A stretch of 14,388 nucleotides of DNA from the IMG/VR virus record IMGVR_UViG_2693429700_000020; one strand, given 5' to 3'. The position numbers and the translations under genes are program-made. The notes under the pieces were generated by a model. The model searched no databases. It was not told the DNA's origin and was given only the letters and a program-made list of their open reading frames with translations. This document shows, one piece after another, positions 1 through 9,423 of the stretch. Numbering within the stretch: the stretch's first letter is position 1; each line of letters opens with the position of its first letter. Origin of the DNA: a virus. Lineage: Duplodnaviria > Heunggongvirae > Uroviricota > Caudoviricetes.

Positions 1-87
1 CTGTGAGTCATATTCATCCTGACTTTCCAGAACCATACGAATCGCCCGCTGACGGACTTCGGGGGAAAAACGAGTATTTTTAGTCAT
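1..87 (-). CDS. IS3-family transposase OrfA, N-terminal 29 codons (partial at window edge)
   Basis: ATG at 87..85 preceded by a GAGG ribosome-binding site; translation MTKNTRFSPEVRQRAIRMVLESQDEYDSQ matches the recalled N-terminus of IS629/IS1203-type OrfA. Confidence 0.7.
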   Translation of the reverse strand, partial: MTKNTRFSPEVRQRAIRMVLESQDEYDSQ

Positions 88-247: not shown

Positions 248-1723
248 TTAAGCATACGGGTCATAATCTGTGATGGCCTTGCCTTGCTGGTTCTGCTGCC
301 CAGGAATTCGCAGACGCTTCGACACAGGGAACGCAAACGTCAGCAGTAGCGCATCGCCTTTACCCGGCGAACGCCCAAGACGCTCTTTGATATCTTCCTT
401 CGGTTCGATAACGATTTTACCGTCCACACGAACTTTGTACTCTGCCGCCGACAGGTCGTCTGCTGTTTCCTGGTCATCCAGCATGCCGCCCAGCCTCAGC
501 CATGTCTTGCATGAATTGAACATCTCCCCACGCTTGTTGAGCATCTGCGGGTCAGTAGACGCGCCACCGAACGGAACAAGTTGCCATGTACGACCCCATC
601 CGTCACCGATTGACTTCAGACCGGTTCCGTAACCGAAGTCGATGAACACCGCGTCAGCCTGGTACTGGTCTTCAAAGTCAGCGATACGCTTCGCCATAAT
701 CAGATCGTCGGTGGTCTTGTTACCAGTCCATAGCACCTTACTGTGCAGCCCCTGCCGCAGGTATATCACCGCGTCATCAACGCCTGAGTATGCCGGGTCA
801 ACGCCGATTATCACCGGAGCATGTGCAACCTGCGCAGCGGTTACCACCCGTTTCATTGCCTCATCAGTAAGACCGGTAGGGATAAACTGCAATTCAGATG
901 CATCAGGGAATATGCCGCGCACACGGATTTTAACGAAGTCGCTGTCTTCCCCGTAGTCATCAACCCATTTCAGCAACTGCTGTTTGTTAGTGCCTTCCAC
1001 CGTCCGGCTGTCAATCTGCGCACACTTCCAGCGGTGTTTGTACTTGCGGAAACATTCACGGAAACGCCCGGTGTTACGCGTCGGGTTCCCGAACGCCACC
1101 CAGATGATTTCGGTGTCTTCGTCCGTCAGCGCACCCTCTGCTACCTCCCACACCAGATCGGCAATGTTCGACGCTTCATCGAATACCACGATGATGCGTT
1201 TGCGCTCGTTGTGTAGTCCGGCGAATGCCTCAGTGTTGTGCTCAGACCAGGGGATTGCGTCAGCTCGCCACCGCTTGTCGTGCCCAGGATCATTGCTGTA
1301 CATCGCGGTAGCGGTACAGGTAAACCAGTCTTTCGTGATAGCAAGGTTCGACCACTTGATAATTTCCGGCCAGGTCTTCGTTCGTAGCTGGTTGTCGGTG
1401 TTGGCGGTCACCACGACCTTACAATCCTCGCAGGTGGACATGCCCCAGTTGATCAGCATTGAGATGAATGCGGATTTACCAATACCGTGACCAGAAGCGC
1501 GTGCCAGCATAAGCGGCTGATAGCGCGTCTCTGGATTCTGCAGGTGATCACGTATCTCTCGGAACGCATCAGCCTGCCACTGACGTGGGCCGGTGGCATG
1601 TGCCAGTTCAGTCCCCTCTTCCCCCCACGGGAACGCATAGAGAGCATAGCCAAGCGGATCGTGAGTGAACCCTGCAATATCCTCGATCAACTGCTCTTCA
1701 GGAGATAACGCTGTATCTGTCAC
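248..1723 (-). CDS. terL: Phage terminase large subunit
   Basis: 491-aa ORF with a Walker A-like ARASGHGIGKS motif and terminase ATPase/nuclease-like layout; GTG start at 1723..1721 overlaps the terS stop (GTGA) and has an AGGATGG ribosome-binding site. Confidence 0.88.
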   Translation of the reverse strand: MTDTALSPEEQLIEDIAGFTHDPLGYALYAFPWGEEGTELAHATGPRQWQADAFREIRDHLQNPETRYQPLMLARASGHGIGKSAFISMLINWGMSTCEDCKVVVTANTDNQLRTKTWPEIIKWSNLAITKDWFTCTATAMYSNDPGHDKRWRADAIPWSEHNTEAFAGLHNERKRIIVVFDEASNIADLVWEVAEGALTDEDTEIIWVAFGNPTRNTGRFRECFRKYKHRWKCAQIDSRTVEGTNKQQLLKWVDDYGEDSDFVKIRVRGIFPDASELQFIPTGLTDEAMKRVVTAAQVAHAPVIIGVDPAYSGVDDAVIYLRQGLHSKVLWTGNKTTDDLIMAKRIADFEDQYQADAVFIDFGYGTGLKSIGDGWGRTWQLVPFGGASTDPQMLNKRGEMFNSCKTWLRLGGMLDDQETADDLSAAEYKVRVDGKIVIEPKEDIKERLGRSPGKGDALLLTFAFPVSKRLRIPGQQNQQGKAITDYDPYA

Positions 1724-2316
1724 TGATTACCATCCTGACGTTCTTTGAGTCGCTTCCTGGCTGCCGCTATGCGATCAGCAATTGTCACATTCACATTAAC
1801 ATCCAGGCGTTCTTTGAACGCGTTGACATCAACATGCTTACCAATCAGCTCAAGGTTCTTCACCTTGTCAGGCCATTTAATTTTTTTGAGGATTGTCTCT
1901 ATCGAATCCTCGTTCATGTTCATGATGGTCGATGACAGATCAAAGCCACTAAGCGTAGTGCGCCAGATTTTCGGCCACTCACGGATAGGTTTAAGGCTCC
2001 CATCGTCGTTGAGGATGTCGATCACGTCCATCTGGTCGATCTCCACTAGGCGCATGAGAACGTAATCAGCACTGACGCGCATTCGTTTGTTGCGCTCCTC
2101 CATCAACTCGGCAATCCGTTTTTGAATGCGTTCATCGCGCATCATGACACTGGCTTTAACTGCCGCTGTATTTGGGGAGAATCCTGCGTTAATCGCTGCC
2201 TGAGTCTGGTTTTCAGGCGTTTTGATGTATGACTGGCAATAAGCCTCCTGCATTGCTGTGAGCGGCTTAAATTGCGTTGATTTGCGTTTATAGGTTTTAG
2301 GTTCAGCAGGCATCAT
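1720..2316 (-). CDS. terS: Phage terminase small subunit (Terminase_2-like)
   Basis: Translation from the ATG pair at 2316/2313 (MMPAEPKTYKRK...LTAMQEAYCQSYIKTPENQTQAAINAGFSPNTAAVKASVMMRDERIQKRIAELMEE) matches the recalled small-terminase pattern. The 26 codons upstream in the track ORF are the translation of operator repeats and are not believed to be coding. GGTGG ribosome-binding site before the ATG. Confidence 0.8.
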   Translation of the reverse strand: MMPAEPKTYKRKSTQFKPLTAMQEAYCQSYIKTPENQTQAAINAGFSPNTAAVKASVMMRDERIQKRIAELMEERNKRMRVSADYVLMRLVEIDQMDVIDILNDDGSLKPIREWPKIWRTTLSGFDLSSTIMNMNEDSIETILKKIKWPDKVKNLELIGKHVDVNAFKERLDVNVNVTIADRIAAARKRLKERQDGNQ

Positions 2317-2348
2317 AACCACCGTGGTAATAGTTACCGTTGTGGTAA
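2316..2348. promoter_or_regulatory. Two adjacent operator-like palindromes (TAACC-accgt-GGTAA 2316-2330; TTACC-gttgt-GGTAA 2334-2348) abutting the terS start codon
   Basis: Same 15-bp TTACC-N5-GGTAA palindrome as in the immunity region; centres 18 bp apart; the first overlaps the terS ATG. Confidence 0.6.
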
Positions 2349-2354
2349 TAGTAA

Positions 2355-2386
2355 CATGCAAAATAAAGCCGCCATAGTTGGCGGCA
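2355..2386 (-). terminator. Rho-independent terminator after the 2391-2618 ORF, immediately before the terS operator sites
   Basis: Minus-strand reading gives GCCGCCA-acta-TGGCGGC followed by TTTATTTTG. Confidence 0.65.
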
Positions 2387-2390
2387 GTAT

Positions 2391-2618
2391 TCAAAGTCCA
2401 TCAAATTCATCGTAAAAACTCTCGTCAAGATACCCTTCCCATTTACCGCGAATGAAAATTACATCCTCGCCGCAAGGGTGCTGACTGTCGATAACTATAT
2501 CCCTCCTGGCGCAACCATACTTATGCATGAGAAATTTAACCTCTTTCGGAAAATTTGCTGAGTTATCTCTCATATCTTCAAGGTCGTAGCGTATTTTTGG
2601 CATAACACCTCGTGACAT
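2391..2618 (-). CDS. Hypothetical small protein (70-75 aa); start ambiguous between ATG 2618 and ATG 2603
   Basis: The ATG at 2618..2616 sits at the centre of the GTGACATGTCAC palindrome; the ATG at 2603..2601 is preceded by GAGGTG. No family recognised. Confidence 0.45.
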   Translation of the reverse strand: MSRGVMPKIRYDLEDMRDNSANFPKEVKFLMHKYGCARRDIVIDSQHPCGEDVIFIRGKWEGYLDESFYDEFDGL

Positions 2619-2624
2619 GTCACA
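2601..2624. repeat. Copy 2 of the conserved block with the 12-bp perfect palindrome GTGACATGTCAC (2612-2623)
   Basis: CATAACACCTC-GTGACATGTCACA; overlaps the stop codon of the 2620-2958 gene and the first ATG of the 2391-2618 ORF. Confidence 0.8.
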
Positions 2625-2958
2625 CTATTAATTTCGTTTCATGCCAACCTTTGGTCACCCAGCATTGCGAGTCACCATTACACGGGCATGAATTCACAGG
2701 AACTCTCTCGCCGCACTTACCGCAACGTTTTCTGCTGATCGATTTTATACGCCCGCGCACGCGTGCATCATCCTGGCGGATCAGTAACGCTATATACTCA
2801 CCAAATTCGTAAGGCGCACGCCCGGGGCGACGCGTGGCACAGTTACGCTCCAGCATTTCAATTTCCTGAGCATCAAGCACAATTTCCAGCTTACGCACAC
2901 CAGATGCAGCTTGTCTGGCTCTCTGAGCGGCTTTGCGCTCTGATGCTGATTTAGCCAT
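2620..2958 (-). CDS. Hypothetical basic protein with C-terminal Cys cluster (CGKCG...CPCNG...C), possible zinc-ribbon DNA-binding regulator
   Basis: ATG at 2958..2956 (the track ORF begins one codon earlier at TTG 2961); Lys/Arg-rich N-terminus and CxxC / CxC / C motifs. No confident family assignment. Confidence 0.5.
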   Translation of the reverse strand: MAKSASERKAAQRARQAASGVRKLEIVLDAQEIEMLERNCATRRPGRAPYEFGEYIALLIRQDDARVRGRIKSISRKRCGKCGERVPVNSCPCNGDSQCWVTKGWHETKLIV

Positions 2959-3232
2959 CAATATTTACCTTTATCGCGAACACTTTTACCGGTTTATCAC
3001 CGAAGTGGGGGTGTGTGATTGTTTTCACTTCATATCCTCCATACGGAACATCAATTCTGCAACTGGAGTCGTCGCGCTTCGGATATCCCTTTGTGATAAT
3101 CAGGCGGTCATACTCCCGGAACATAATTCGCTTATTCCAGTAGTCATTACACAGGCGATACTCCTCGGTTTTCTCGCCACGAATCATGGCATCGAAGTAT
3201 TCACCTTTTACGGCAAGTTGCAGGTTAGCCAC
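2951..3232 (-). CDS. ASCH/PUA-like domain protein (DUF3850-like)
   Basis: GTG start at 3232 preceded by AGGAGG; N-terminal LQLAVKGEYFDAMIRGEKTEEYR resembles the ASCH signature as I recall it. Confidence 0.5.
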   Translation of the reverse strand: MANLQLAVKGEYFDAMIRGEKTEEYRLCNDYWNKRIMFREYDRLIITKGYPKRDDSSCRIDVPYGGYEVKTITHPHFGDKPVKVFAIKVNIDG

Positions 3233-6241: not shown

Positions 6242-6318
6242 TTACCCCTGAGGTAATTAAAAACCACATAAGACACGAAATCAATAGATTTTAGTATATT
6301 TTATTACCCACCAGGTAA
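6242..6318 (-). promoter_or_regulatory. Internal promoter flanked by two perfect operators (TTACCCCTGAGGTAA 6242-6256; TTACCCACCAGGTAA 6304-6318)
   Basis: Minus-strand -35 TTGATT (6284..6279), 17-bp spacer, -10 TTTAAT (6261..6256); operator centres 62 bp apart, the same geometry as the early promoter at 9347-9423. Confidence 0.6.
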
Positions 6319-6355: not shown

Positions 6356-7141
6356 TTACTTGATAAATCCTGCCGCCTTTCCCCGCCTGTATTCCTCCAT
6401 CAGCCACTGTGCCGGTGTTATTCCACCCAGGGTGGCGGCGTTAGGCATGCACCCGAAACTTCGCCCTGGCGGGTGGTAAACGTCTCTCCCTGTGTCCGGA
6501 GGCGTACTCATGGGTTCTGGCTTTGCCTGTATGCTGATCACCGGATCGGGTATCTGCTGTCCGGAAGCCACCTTTTTCGCCCAATCATCGAGCAACCTGC
6601 GCGCGTGTTTCTCAACCTCAATCTCGCTAAGCTGGCGCTGATACATTGCGCGGCGGGTATCACATACAACCCAGTACATAACCGGATGCCGCCACGGGAA
6701 TCTTTCGGGACCGCCAGGATATAAACTTTTTTCCTTGCTGTACCGGTGAAACTCCGCCATCACATCGTCAATGGTGACACCAAGAACCATCTTGCTGTCT
6801 TTGCACCACTTGATAAATTGCCCAGGCGACGGCCAGAACGGAGATTCACTGGCGCGGGCGTGGCGCATACCAGCAGAAACCTGTTCACGGGTTCGGATCC
6901 CACCTTCGGCAAACGCAGCAATCCACTGCTGTTTTGCAGCGACTTCCTGCTCTGGCGTCTTCAGGTTGGTTACCACTGCCGCCGGAAACAGTTGTTTCAG
7001 CTGTTTGAAAAGGGCATCAACAAGCCTCTCTGCTGACATGTTCACCACATTGTCATTGTTGACGTACTGATGCTCATAACCTGACATGCGAGAAAGGGCT
7101 TCTCCGTCACGGTTTTGTATCGCGGTAAAAACGTTGTTCAC
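6356..7141 (-). CDS. Lambda P-like replication protein (helicase loader)
   Basis: KQQWIAAFAEGGIRTREQVSAGMRHARASESPFWPSPGQFIKWC parallels the lambda P segment RRQWVLAFRENGITTMEQVNAGMRVARRQNRPFLPSPGQFVAWC (recalled). Likely GTG start at 7141 with GGGAGGA ribosome-binding site, overlapping the O-like stop (GTGA). Confidence 0.85.
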   Translation of the reverse strand: MNNVFTAIQNRDGEALSRMSGYEHQYVNNDNVVNMSAERLVDALFKQLKQLFPAAVVTNLKTPEQEVAAKQQWIAAFAEGGIRTREQVSAGMRHARASESPFWPSPGQFIKWCKDSKMVLGVTIDDVMAEFHRYSKEKSLYPGGPERFPWRHPVMYWVVCDTRRAMYQRQLSEIEVEKHARRLLDDWAKKVASGQQIPDPVISIQAKPEPMSTPPDTGRDVYHPPGRSFGCMPNAATLGGITPAQWLMEEYRRGKAAGFIK

Positions 7142-7953
7142 AAGAAATCCTCCCACGCTTCAGGGCTGTTCCAGTGCGGAACGTTGTTATCAGGTAATGT
7201 TGATTGCTTCTGTCTGCTAATCTGCAGCCGCCTTGCCAGCTTCTGCTCCCACTGTGCCTGATGGTATGCCTTACCCTCAGCCATCCAGTAAATTCTGAAT
7301 TCTGCAAGTTCCTGTGCCGTTGGCAGACTGTCCAGGTAGATTCCCTGCAATGAGCTTTTCCGAAGAAAGTCATCTGATGGTTGCCATTGTTCATGCATGA
7401 CAAATTTGCCTAATTGCCCTGGCCCACCAGGAGGAACAAAGTTATTCATCACGGCGTTGTTTGCGCCGGGGTCATGAGGCACAGAATCCCCGGTTTTTGT
7501 CCTGCTCTCCCTCTCTTGGTTAAATGACTGGTTATATGACTGGTTCTGGATCCCGTTTTTGGGATCATTCAACATCCCGTTTTTGGGATCATTCAACATC
7601 CCGTTTTTGGGTATATTCCCGTTTTCGGGAACATTACCGTTTTCGGGTTCATTACACCCTTCCCGGTTGCCTTTAATGTTCCCGTTTTTGGTTATATTAA
7701 GAGAGAAAACCCGCACTCTTTTCGTCGCTCCCTTTCTCTCTCCGGTATCTGAAATAAGCCCCATTTTCATGAGCGATATAAGCCCGGACTGCACGGTTTT
7801 TTTATTCAGGCAAGTGTCTTTAACGAGGCGTTCTATGCTGGGGTAGCAGAGGTTATATTCATCGGCTCTGTCAGCCATCGAGAGCAGTATGAGCTTTAAT
7901 GATGAGCTACCTGGGTCTGTCTCCCAGGCCCAATCTGTTGCATGTCTGCTCAT
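7138..7953 (-). CDS. Replication initiator (O-like): N-terminal helix-turn-helix domain, repeat-encoded low-complexity linker, C-terminal domain
   Basis: ATG at 7953 with GGAG ribosome-binding site; sits directly upstream of the P-like gene; contains the iteron array, as lambda O contains ori. Confidence 0.7.
   Translation of the reverse strand: MSRHATDWAWETDPGSSSLKLILLSMADRADEYNLCYPSIERLVKDTCLNKKTVQSGLISLMKMGLISDTGERKGATKRVRVFSLNITKNGNIKGNREGCNEPENGNVPENGNIPKNGMLNDPKNGMLNDPKNGIQNQSYNQSFNQERESRTKTGDSVPHDPGANNAVMNNFVPPGGPGQLGKFVMHEQWQPSDDFLRKSSLQGIYLDSLPTAQELAEFRIYWMAEGKAYHQAQWEQKLARRLQISRQKQSTLPDNNVPHWNSPEAWEDFL
7552..7692. repeat. Iteron-like direct repeats (candidate replication origin) inside the O-like gene
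   Basis: CCCGTTTT(T/C)GGG core at 7552, 7576, 7600, 7618, about 7636 and 7681 (periods 24, 24, 18, 18); two exact 24-bp units CCCGTTTTTGGGATCATTCAACAT; a second short repeat ATGACTGGTT at 7525 and 7537. Confidence 0.7.
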
Positions 7954-8249: not shown

Positions 8250-8264
8250 TTACCTTTAAGGTGC
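8250..8264. promoter_or_regulatory. Imperfect operator-like site TTACC-tttaa-GGTGC just downstream of the tR1-like terminator
   Basis: 8 of 10 specified positions match the TTACC-N5-GGTAA palindrome; the GGTGC half-site is the same variant as at 8618-8632. Confidence 0.4.
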
Positions 8265-8319: not shown

Positions 8320-8550
8320 TCATGAGTAGAAGAAGTATGCCAGTTCTGCTTTTGAGCGCAGCCATTGTCTTGTTTTACAGGCTTTAAAAAGCCCATTCAT
8401 CAATACTTTACCTGGCATTTTGCGCTTACCTGTTAAGTGAGTCTGGATATAGTGACTCGTCGTTCCGGCTTCCTGTGCGAAGGCTTCACGCTCATCCGGA
8501 GTAAGTGCAAGCCAGTGCTTTTTGAAATCGAAATGTCCGTTATCGCTCAT
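8320..8550 (-). CDS. Cro-like small helix-turn-helix DNA-binding protein
   Basis: 76 aa; first gene of the minus-strand operon, divergent from the repressor; candidate HTH at AFAQEAGTTSHYIQTHLTGKR. Confidence 0.5.
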   Translation of the reverse strand: MSDNGHFDFKKHWLALTPDEREAFAQEAGTTSHYIQTHLTGKRKMPGKVLMNGLFKACKTRQWLRSKAELAYFFYS

Positions 8551-8586
8551 AGCTATTGCCTGATATTTATTTCAGATAATAAATAT

Positions 8587-8649
8587 TCACCCATAAGGTA
8601 ACAAAAATCAAGGATAGTTACCTATGGGGTGCATTTACCTGTTGGGTAA
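8587..8649. promoter_or_regulatory. Operator cluster between the Cro-like and repressor genes: TCACCCATAAGGTAA (8587-8601), TTACCTATGGGGTGC (8618-8632), TTACCTGTTGGGTAA (8635-8649)
   Basis: Three copies (one perfect, two near) of the palindrome in the divergent regulatory region; a minus-strand -35 TTGTTA / -10 TATTAT candidate overlaps the first site. Confidence 0.65.
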
Positions 8650-8704: not shown

Positions 8705-9289
8705 ATGAAAAGTATCCAGGACGTCCGCAGGCAAAATCTCAACGACTTGATCGACCGTGAATTCAATGGTGTTCAGACGCGGATGGCAGAAAAACTTGGA
8801 ACTCAGGCAAATCTGGTAAACCGCTGGGCTCTTGGCAAGAAGGTTATCGGCGACCAGGTTGCGCGAAAAATTGAAGCTGCCGCCAATAAACCCCGTAACT
8901 GGCTTGATATCGATCGCTCGCTTTCTCAGGAGGGGTTTCAGCCTGTCGGCCCAAGCGACATTGGTCAGCTGGCGGCTCACAACCTGGAACGCTGGATGAG
9001 CGAAAGCCGCGACCTTTCAACACAGGGAAAACTTCACCGCGCATCCGGCGTCGCCCAGGTGACAATCAGCCGCCTGTTAAACAATGAGGTCAGTGTTTCC
9101 ATTTCCACCCTGGAGAATGTTGCATCCGCATTCGGGCGTCACGGATATGAACTACTGATTCACCCGCATGACCCTGCAACTATCAACTATGACCGCTCGC
9201 GCTACGCATTGTTACCCGAAACCGAGAAAGCAAAGATCGAAAGTTACATTGAATTTGTCATCAACCAGAACGAAAAAAACAAACAATAA
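8705..9289 (+). CDS. Phage repressor (CI-like role) with two XRE-type helix-turn-helix domains and no S24 peptidase domain
   Basis: 194 aa; HTH-like segments QTRMAEKLGTQANLVNRW and LHRASGVAQVTISRLLNN; lies between the two operator regions like lambda cI; weak ribosome-binding site. Confidence 0.7.
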   Translation: MKSIQDVRRQNLNDLIDREFNGVQTRMAEKLGTQANLVNRWALGKKVIGDQVARKIEAAANKPRNWLDIDRSLSQEGFQPVGPSDIGQLAAHNLERWMSESRDLSTQGKLHRASGVAQVTISRLLNNEVSVSISTLENVASAFGRHGYELLIHPHDPATINYDRSRYALLPETEKAKIESYIEFVINQNEKNKQ

Positions 9290-9346: not shown

Positions 9347-9423
9347 TTACCTAATGGGTAATTTTTTTAACTCATATCTATTGACATCAAACCAGATACG
9401 CATAATTATTACCTAAACGGTAA
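9347..9423 (+). promoter_or_regulatory. Early (pL-like) promoter flanked by two perfect operators (TTACCTAATGGGTAA 9347-9361; TTACCTAAACGGTAA 9409-9423)
   Basis: -35 TTGACA at 9381-9386; -10 within CATAATTAT at 9401-9409; operator centres 62 bp apart, the downstream one overlapping the -10 and start-site region. Confidence 0.7.

Follow-up and report, generated by a model that had tools for sequence, protein, structure and literature searches.

Introduction

The RefSeq record of phage epsilon15 (NC_004775.2), the type phage of the genus Uetakevirus, carries the feature 'protein_bind: repressor, lysogeny' at 12..27, 2931, 19895, 32479, 32554, 32616 and 35906. All of these annotated sites read ATTACC-N5-GGTAAT. 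The record reportedly follows Kropinski et al. 2007 and, as far as checked, the annotation is a prediction. A second phage of this genus, SPC32H, has a Rep-Ant switch whose structures (PDB 5D50/5D4Z) are said to come from Kim et al. 2016. According to two later papers citing the structures (PMC9638917, PMC9986798), the SPC32H Rep binds DNA with its N-terminal domain, dimerises through a middle domain and tetramerises through a C-terminal one. In these accounts, a tetramer of Rep occupies palindromic sites, and Rep is inactivated when the antirepressor Ant dismantles it, not by self-cleavage. In phage ZX5, overexpression of Rep abolishes free phage, and the amount of holin and endolysin mRNA falls by more than 99.9% (PMC9782041).

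In lambda, repression by promoter occlusion takes place at a divergent repressor/cro switch with three operators and at PL with its operators, and late transcription is Q-dependent and starts from a single late promoter. The P1 C1 operators and the stoperators of mycobacteriophage L5 gp71 are examples of one immunity repressor with many genome-wide sites, including sites in late regions. The P1 and L5 sites are asymmetric, and those of L5 mainly serve to block elongation inside operons. The promoter region of a small terminase gene can also have a second function. In SPP1, TerS binds the terS promoter region and down-regulates its own operon (PMC4737164).

Here we describe a stretch of viral DNA of 14,388 nucleotides (IMG/VR record IMGVR_UViG_2693429700_000020, hereafter the window). 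The original prediction was made from the letters of the window and placed a pair of immunity-type operators between an intrinsic terminator and the terS gene.

Results

The window turned out to be part of a Uetakevirus (epsilon15/phiV10-like podovirus) prophage. Over most of its length it matches PAS61, phiv142-3, TL-2011b, ZX5 and phiV10 at about 97%. Related prophages are common in E. coli. In a survey of 5426 complete E. coli genomes, the 131 bp around the terS operator region were present in 502 (about 9%), and the rep/OR region was present in 539. All genes that flank the terS operators lie on the minus strand. The terS gene (1720..2313, minus strand) encodes a small terminase of the Terminase_2 family (Pfam PF03592, 1e-29; phrog_51), which also matches the SF6 small terminase (PDB 3zqp, 6.5e-07). 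The large terminase subunit gene terL (248..1723, minus strand) was identified by the annotation in relatives; it overlaps terS and is the second gene of the operon. A comparison of TerL with PDB sequences gave no match. Upstream of the terminator are the last two genes of the early-right operon (2391..2961, minus strand). One encodes a putative regulator of 113 aa (2961..2620, phrog_536), and the other is an ORF of 75 aa (2618..2391, phrog_1541), which stops at 2391, directly upstream of the terminator. Neither product has a match in Pfam, NCBIfam or PDB. The 75-aa ORF is kept in the window and in some prophages, and phiV10-type loci retain only an 8-codon remnant of it. This presence or absence is an indel polymorphism adjoining the terS promoter. 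An Rfam scan of the whole window returned no RNA family.

Reading the minus strand towards terS, we found the terminator (2385..2359), an extended -10 element, a first operator (O1), a second operator (O2) and the gene. In letters, the terminator is followed by CATGTTACTA, TTACCACAACGGTAA (O1), CTA, TTACCACGGTGGTTA (O2) and TG-ATG-CCT (terS). The terminator and both palindromes of the original prediction are thus present, at 2334-2348 (0 mismatches) and 2316-2330 (1 mismatch). The predicted centre spacings, 18 bp at terS and 17 bp at the rep/cro cluster (8618/8635), were both reproduced. Using a terminator scan, we located the intrinsic terminator of the early-right operon at 2359..2385 (minus strand). 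It has a GC-rich hairpin, GCCGCCAACTATGGCGGC (2385..2368), followed on the transcribed strand by a T-run, TTTATTTTG (2367..2359). In the RNA fold of this region (-31.3 kcal/mol, z = -4.5), the 7-bp GC stem of the terminator dominates. The terminator is kept in the E. coli and Salmonella groups and is missing from the BUCT554 and L071 groups.

The layout of terminator, operators and terS is real, but one conserved element of it had been overlooked. The 9 nt that separate the terminator from O1 are filled by TGTTACTAT (2348..2356, minus strand), which reads as an extended -10 element of the sigma-70 type. The TG is at 2356..2355, positions -15/-14 of the predicted promoter, and after one nucleotide it is followed by the TATAAT-like hexamer TACTAT (2353..2348), in which positions 2 and 6 are A and T. 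The final T of TGTTACTAT is also the first T of O1. No -35 match was found for the terS promoter, since the terminator occupies that position. We infer that the extended -10 is an active promoter with a transcription start near 2341, although a promoter that lacks a -35 might require an activator. Such a promoter would explain the expression of a gene lying directly behind a terminator.

O1 (TTACCACAACGGTAA, 2334..2348, minus strand) is the promoter-proximal predicted Rep operator. In the form TTACCGTTGTGGTAA it has no mismatches to TTACCN5GGTAA, and it spans about -7 to +8 relative to the predicted start. O2 (TTACCACGGTGGTTA, 2316..2330, minus strand; TAACCACCGTGGTAA) is an auxiliary predicted operator with one mismatch and lies downstream of O1. 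The right half of O2 contains the Shine-Dalgarno sequence GGTGG (2323..2319). Conservation of O2 may therefore be partly translational, with its right half doubling as the ribosome-binding site.

There are tandem ATG codons at terS, at 2316..2314 and 2313..2311. The alignment of relatives shows that the second one is the conserved start; the corresponding sequence is ATT-ATG in one relative and CA-ATG in epsilon15 and Tyrion. O2 had been described as overlapping the terS ATG. It does touch the A of the first ATG, but the conserved start is 2 nt away, so that O2 abuts the gene. Several public records start terS at an upstream TTG (window 2394). This gives a 224-aa protein that spans the terminator and both operators, as in phiV10 (NC_007804.2, 41..715) and PAS61 (OQ921333.1, 12387..13061).

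We searched the whole window for TTACC-N5-GGTAA with no more than one mismatch. It has 8 such sites where 0.28 would be expected, and this count was not attained in any of 200 shuffles. The sites group into four intergenic clusters: terS, DUF1064/resolvase, rep/cro and PL. The terS cluster (2316, 2334) lies upstream of terS. The OR cluster is located between cro and rep (8587..8649) and includes 8587-8601, 8635-8649 and a weak site with two mismatches at 8618-8632. PR (8604..8576) reads TTGTTA-17-TATTAT, and cro (8550..8320) lies on the other flank of OR from rep. The PL region (9347..9423, plus strand) is downstream of rep and before the recE/recT operon. It consists of a distal operator (9347-9361), the promoter TTGACA-17-AATTAT (9381-9409) and a proximal operator (9409-9423). 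The third early promoter, that of the DUF1064/resolvase operon (6242..6318, minus strand), sits between the replication genes and the DUF1064/resolvase gene. It has a distal operator at 6318..6304, the promoter TTGATT-17-TTTAAT at 6284..6256 and a proximal operator at 6256..6242. At the terS promoter, PL and the DUF1064 promoter the junction is the same: a single T both ends the -10 and begins the operator.

Several further observations concern the arrangement of these sites. At PL and at the DUF1064 promoter, the distal operator lies exactly 62 bp upstream of the proximal one, which is about six helical turns. Such pairs suggest DNA looping by a tetrameric repressor. The terS promoter differs from both, as its second operator is 18 bp downstream. 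A weak Rep-type site, TTACCTTTAAGGTGC (two mismatches, 8250-8264), is located just behind the cro terminator; phiV10 (33112), Tyrion (35365) and BUCT554 (13481) have better sites at the syntenic position. A second short motif, (C)ATATRTGGTTT, adjoins several promoters (lysis, tail fibre, DUF1064 and post-cro) and occurs 4-6 times per genome against about one expected. It was found at 6261-6269 (minus strand) in the window, at 20924, 24742 and 35119 in phiV10, and at 24754 and 33756 in epsilon15.

To describe the distribution of the palindrome in the genus, we scanned six Uetakevirus genomes (epsilon15, SPC32H, phiV10, Tyrion, BUCT554 and BUCT711), whose hosts belong to four genera: Salmonella, Escherichia, Enterobacter and Klebsiella. 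TTACC-N5-GGTAA is present at 14-18 sites per genome, with about one expected. Across the six genomes, syntenic sites are found upstream of terS, before the gp3/portal operon, in the antirepressor/tail-fibre region and in the lysis/O-antigen-modification region. The same is true of the positions before int, at OL, at OR, behind the cro terminator and before the resolvase/DUF1064 operon. At the resolvase/DUF1064 promoter, the operator pair spaced by 62 bp is syntenic in 6/6 genomes.

The region upstream of terS was compared in a larger set. Together with the genomes, 80 IMG/VR loci fetched by TerS similarity gave about 42 distinct sequences. In all of them RTGnTAnTAT fused to TTACC-N5-GGTAA is invariant. 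This element, with O1, is retained even in the BUCT554 and L071 groups, despite unrelated upstream DNA and the absence of the terminator. A single copy of the composite TGnTAnTAT-TACC-N5-GGTAA, upstream of terS, is present in 87 of the 90 loci; the exceptions are one record that is broken inside the site and two phages that do not belong to Uetakevirus. The half-sites of O1 are constant in all 8 of its variants, and the 5-nt spacer is free (ACAAC, ACAAT, ATAAC, AAAAC, AAAAT, TGCAT, TTCAT, TAAAA). Operator spacers have a higher A/T content in the epsilon15 group. In the E. coli group O2 reads TTACC-NN-GGTGGTTA, and spacer positions 6-7 alone vary (AC/AT/AG/AA). In epsilon15 it is TTACTTCGGTGGTAA, which is weaker than in the E. 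coli group. SPC32H has two mismatches in O2, the BUCT554 group has it at 20 bp from O1, and in the Klebsiella group it is degenerate. Because O2 is weaker, respaced or degenerate in some clades, its role as an operator appears less certain than that of O1. Upstream of the 59%-identical terS genes of Cronobacter phage phiES15 and Aeromonas phage 51, both of which have no Rep homologue, the N5 palindromes are absent.

By its form, the pair at terS agrees with the predicted Rep operators of Uetakevirus, palindromes of 15-17 bp whose TTACC half-sites are separated by 5 bp; O1 matches without a mismatch and O2 with one. The presumed cognate Rep is encoded in the same element, which carries the motif at its own OR and OL. 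The position is orthologous to an annotated site of epsilon15, with the half-sites fixed and the spacer free. The epsilon15 site in question, 12..27, is the orthologue of O1; it has the same terminator in front of it and is followed 20 nt later by terS. The further epsilon15 sites are dispersed in the same manner, before the portal, tail-fibre, OL and resolvase operons. The epsilon15 record differs in that it lists only one site at terS; it has no annotation for O2, for the three sites of OR or for the fused extended -10.

The repressor presumed to bind O1 and O2 is encoded by rep (8705..9289, plus strand). Its product matches the SPC32H Rep over the full length (PDB 5d50, 4e-42) and gives Pfam HTH matches. 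It is 100% identical to the repressors of phiV10 and ZX5, 43% identical to the Rep of epsilon15 and 42% identical to that of SPC32H, which has the same O1 upstream of terS. The TerS of ZX5 is likewise identical to that of the window. The effects of Rep overexpression in ZX5 are consistent with the repressor model, but indirectly, since Rep also blocks early genes. A tetrameric Rep, as described for SPC32H, fits the operators of the window, which occur in pairs. The antirepressor gene lies outside the window. No LexA-like cleavage domain was found in the window Rep by Pfam. We also considered two DNA-binding domains per Rep chain, given the two Pfam HTH matches, and rejected this, as the middle domain is the dimerisation domain.

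The helix segment NLVNRW (residues 36-41, N-terminal) is invariant in six aligned Reps from phages of four host genera, the other five of which are 42-78% identical to that of the window. This matches the invariance of the TTACC half-site. The half-site and NLVNRW are both invariant in all clades, which leaves no variation for operator and repressor to share. Their invariance would predict cross-recognition of operators between phages that are expected to be heteroimmune. A separate observation concerns the antirepressor region. In phiV10 (about 20830-20850) and epsilon15 (about 19850-19870), a LexA-box-like CTGT-N8-ACAG adjoins a Rep site between the ant-like and tail-fibre genes. This fits an SOS-controlled induction of the antirepressor in this phage group.

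Discussion

We consider it likely, judging from the sequence, that 2316-2356 is a compact Rep-gated promoter of the epsilon15/phiV10-type packaging operon. The elements themselves, the enrichment of the palindrome, its conservation pattern, the homology of Rep and the synteny with the annotated epsilon15 site are direct observations. The main claim of the original prediction, that an immunity-type operator directly controls terS-terL, is borne out at this level. The palindrome is common to OR, OL and other promoters, it is kept before terS in every Uetakevirus sampled, and the orthologous site of epsilon15 is annotated as repressor-binding.

Such a promoter could work as follows. The intrinsic terminator would end the early-right transcript and insulate terS-terL from upstream transcription. 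A new transcript would start at about 2341 from the -35-independent extended -10. In a lysogen, Rep would occupy O1 and probably O2 too, with pairs of N-terminal domains reading the palindrome. One Rep tetramer could hold O1 and O2 together and occlude RNA polymerase, leaving terS-terL silent. When the antirepressor dismantles Rep, the terS promoter would fire along with the other Rep-controlled promoters, and a Q-type antiterminator would not be needed for its release.

It is possible to read the two palindromes in other ways. They could be recognition elements of the small terminase (pac/cosB-like) that merely resemble operators and mark the start of packaging, not the control of transcription. 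The TerS of the window is a Terminase_2 protein whose closest solved relative is the SF6/SPP1 small terminase, and in SPP1/SF6 pac spans promoters and the start of terS (PMC4737164). Moreover, the linear record of Klebsiella phage BUCT711 (OM816836.1) breaks 4 nt inside O1, which may be a coincidence or a packaging-related assembly break. When we examined the ends of IMG/VR contigs near terS as possible packaging ends, they were scattered and gave no signal. An element specific to the region where packaging begins would not be expected to recur as this one does, with 8 copies in the window and 14-18 in each genome, all of them at promoter regions, among them OR and OL. O1 is fused to the -10 just as the operator at PL is, the palindromes are missing before the terS of the Rep-less phiES15 and Aeromonas phage 51, and SF6-type TerS binds pac DNA with little sequence specificity (PMC4737164). 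The pac of SPP1 is built of direct repeats and DNA shape (PMC4737164), not of a dispersed palindrome. The suggestion that these are cosB or pac elements sharing the operator half-sites is therefore poorly supported, and we regard it as highly improbable. A pac region that overlaps 2316-2348 independently of the palindromes could still exist there. A dual use, in which the DNA occupied by Rep at O1-O2 is also part of a pac read by a TerS of the SPP1/SF6 type, seems very unlikely. If it were true, removal of Rep would license both terminase synthesis and the initiation of packaging at one spot, and TerS could shut its own promoter.

The sites might also be bound by a regulator other than Rep, either Cro or the 113-aa protein acting as an activator or modulator of late genes. 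The phrog_536 gene of this protein is conserved in all relatives as the last gene before terS. The terS promoter has no -35, a typical trait of promoters that depend on an activator, and Cro proteins as a rule bind the operators of their repressor. However, an operator centred at about +1 is placed for repression and not for activation. The rep/cro switch is filled with the identical motif, and with an extended -10 the promoter needs no activator. For the 113-aa protein, no family or structure match was found that would link this candidate binder to any site. Overall we find such a regulator very unlikely. Action at the level of RNA is extremely improbable. Here the palindromes would form hairpins in the 5'-UTR that hide the ribosome-binding site and tune the translation of terS. 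Indeed, in the fold the right O1 half pairs with the left O2 half, and ACCAC pairs with GUGGU, which buries GGUGG. But most of the fold energy is supplied by the terminator, and in a transcript from about 2341 the outer stem would have no 5' arm. The ACCAC/GUGGU pairing is not retained in epsilon15 or in the BUCT554 group with its 20-bp spacing, and the sequences are conserved in the way of a palindrome in DNA, whose spacer is free.

The Rep-gated promoter, which we prefer, has both likenesses to and differences from the systems described above. As in lambda, there is a divergent rep/cro switch with three operators, PL has operators, and repression would occur by occlusion of the promoter. Unlike lambda, the packaging promoter of the window carries its own operators, and the window Rep is without the LexA-like cleavage domain. 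No Q- or N-like antiterminator family is represented among the ORFs between cro and terS, and the window contains no homologue of either. The lambdoid arrangement, in which a Q-family gene precedes a single late promoter with its qut and terminator, is also absent from it. The contrast with Q control that was drawn in the original prediction depends on the framing, as the late region is not lambdoid. The element belongs to an epsilon15/phiV10-type podovirus, in which dispersed Rep sites are the norm, so a terS operator is not unusual. Compared with the sites of P1 and L5, those of the window are palindromes on or beside promoters. L5-type stoperators are asymmetric, lie in one orientation and are found inside operons, whereas the sites of the window are symmetric and lie on or next to the -10 and -35 elements. 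With SPP1 the window shares a related TerS family, and there too the terS promoter region has a second function.

A repressor site at the terS promoter is already public for epsilon15, and no new kind of control is involved. The window adds the O2 site, the fused extended -10 and the conservation statistics, but no new principle. A full-text literature search, with the original epsilon15 and SPC32H papers outside its scope, returned no footprint, EMSA, ChIP or transcription-start data on the terS site and no further descriptions of epsilon15/phiV10 operators. If Rep sits on terS and on most other promoters, the circuit would be flat, with one tetrameric repressor shutting nearly every lytic unit. 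In that case a single antirepressor would free all units together, without an antitermination cascade. A flat circuit, if true, would bear on the timing of induction of prophages present in about 9% of complete E. coli genomes, and on the engineering of reporter phages of the phiV10/SPC32H type.

One more feature of the window was seen in the replication region. Inside the replication-initiator gene (7138..7953, minus strand) there is an iteron-like array at 7550-7655. It is made up of 2.6 copies of a 24-bp unit with 100% identity and, after these, 3.1 copies of an 18-bp unit; every unit contains CCC-A/G-AAAACGG(G). By analogy with lambda O, this array is probably the phage origin.
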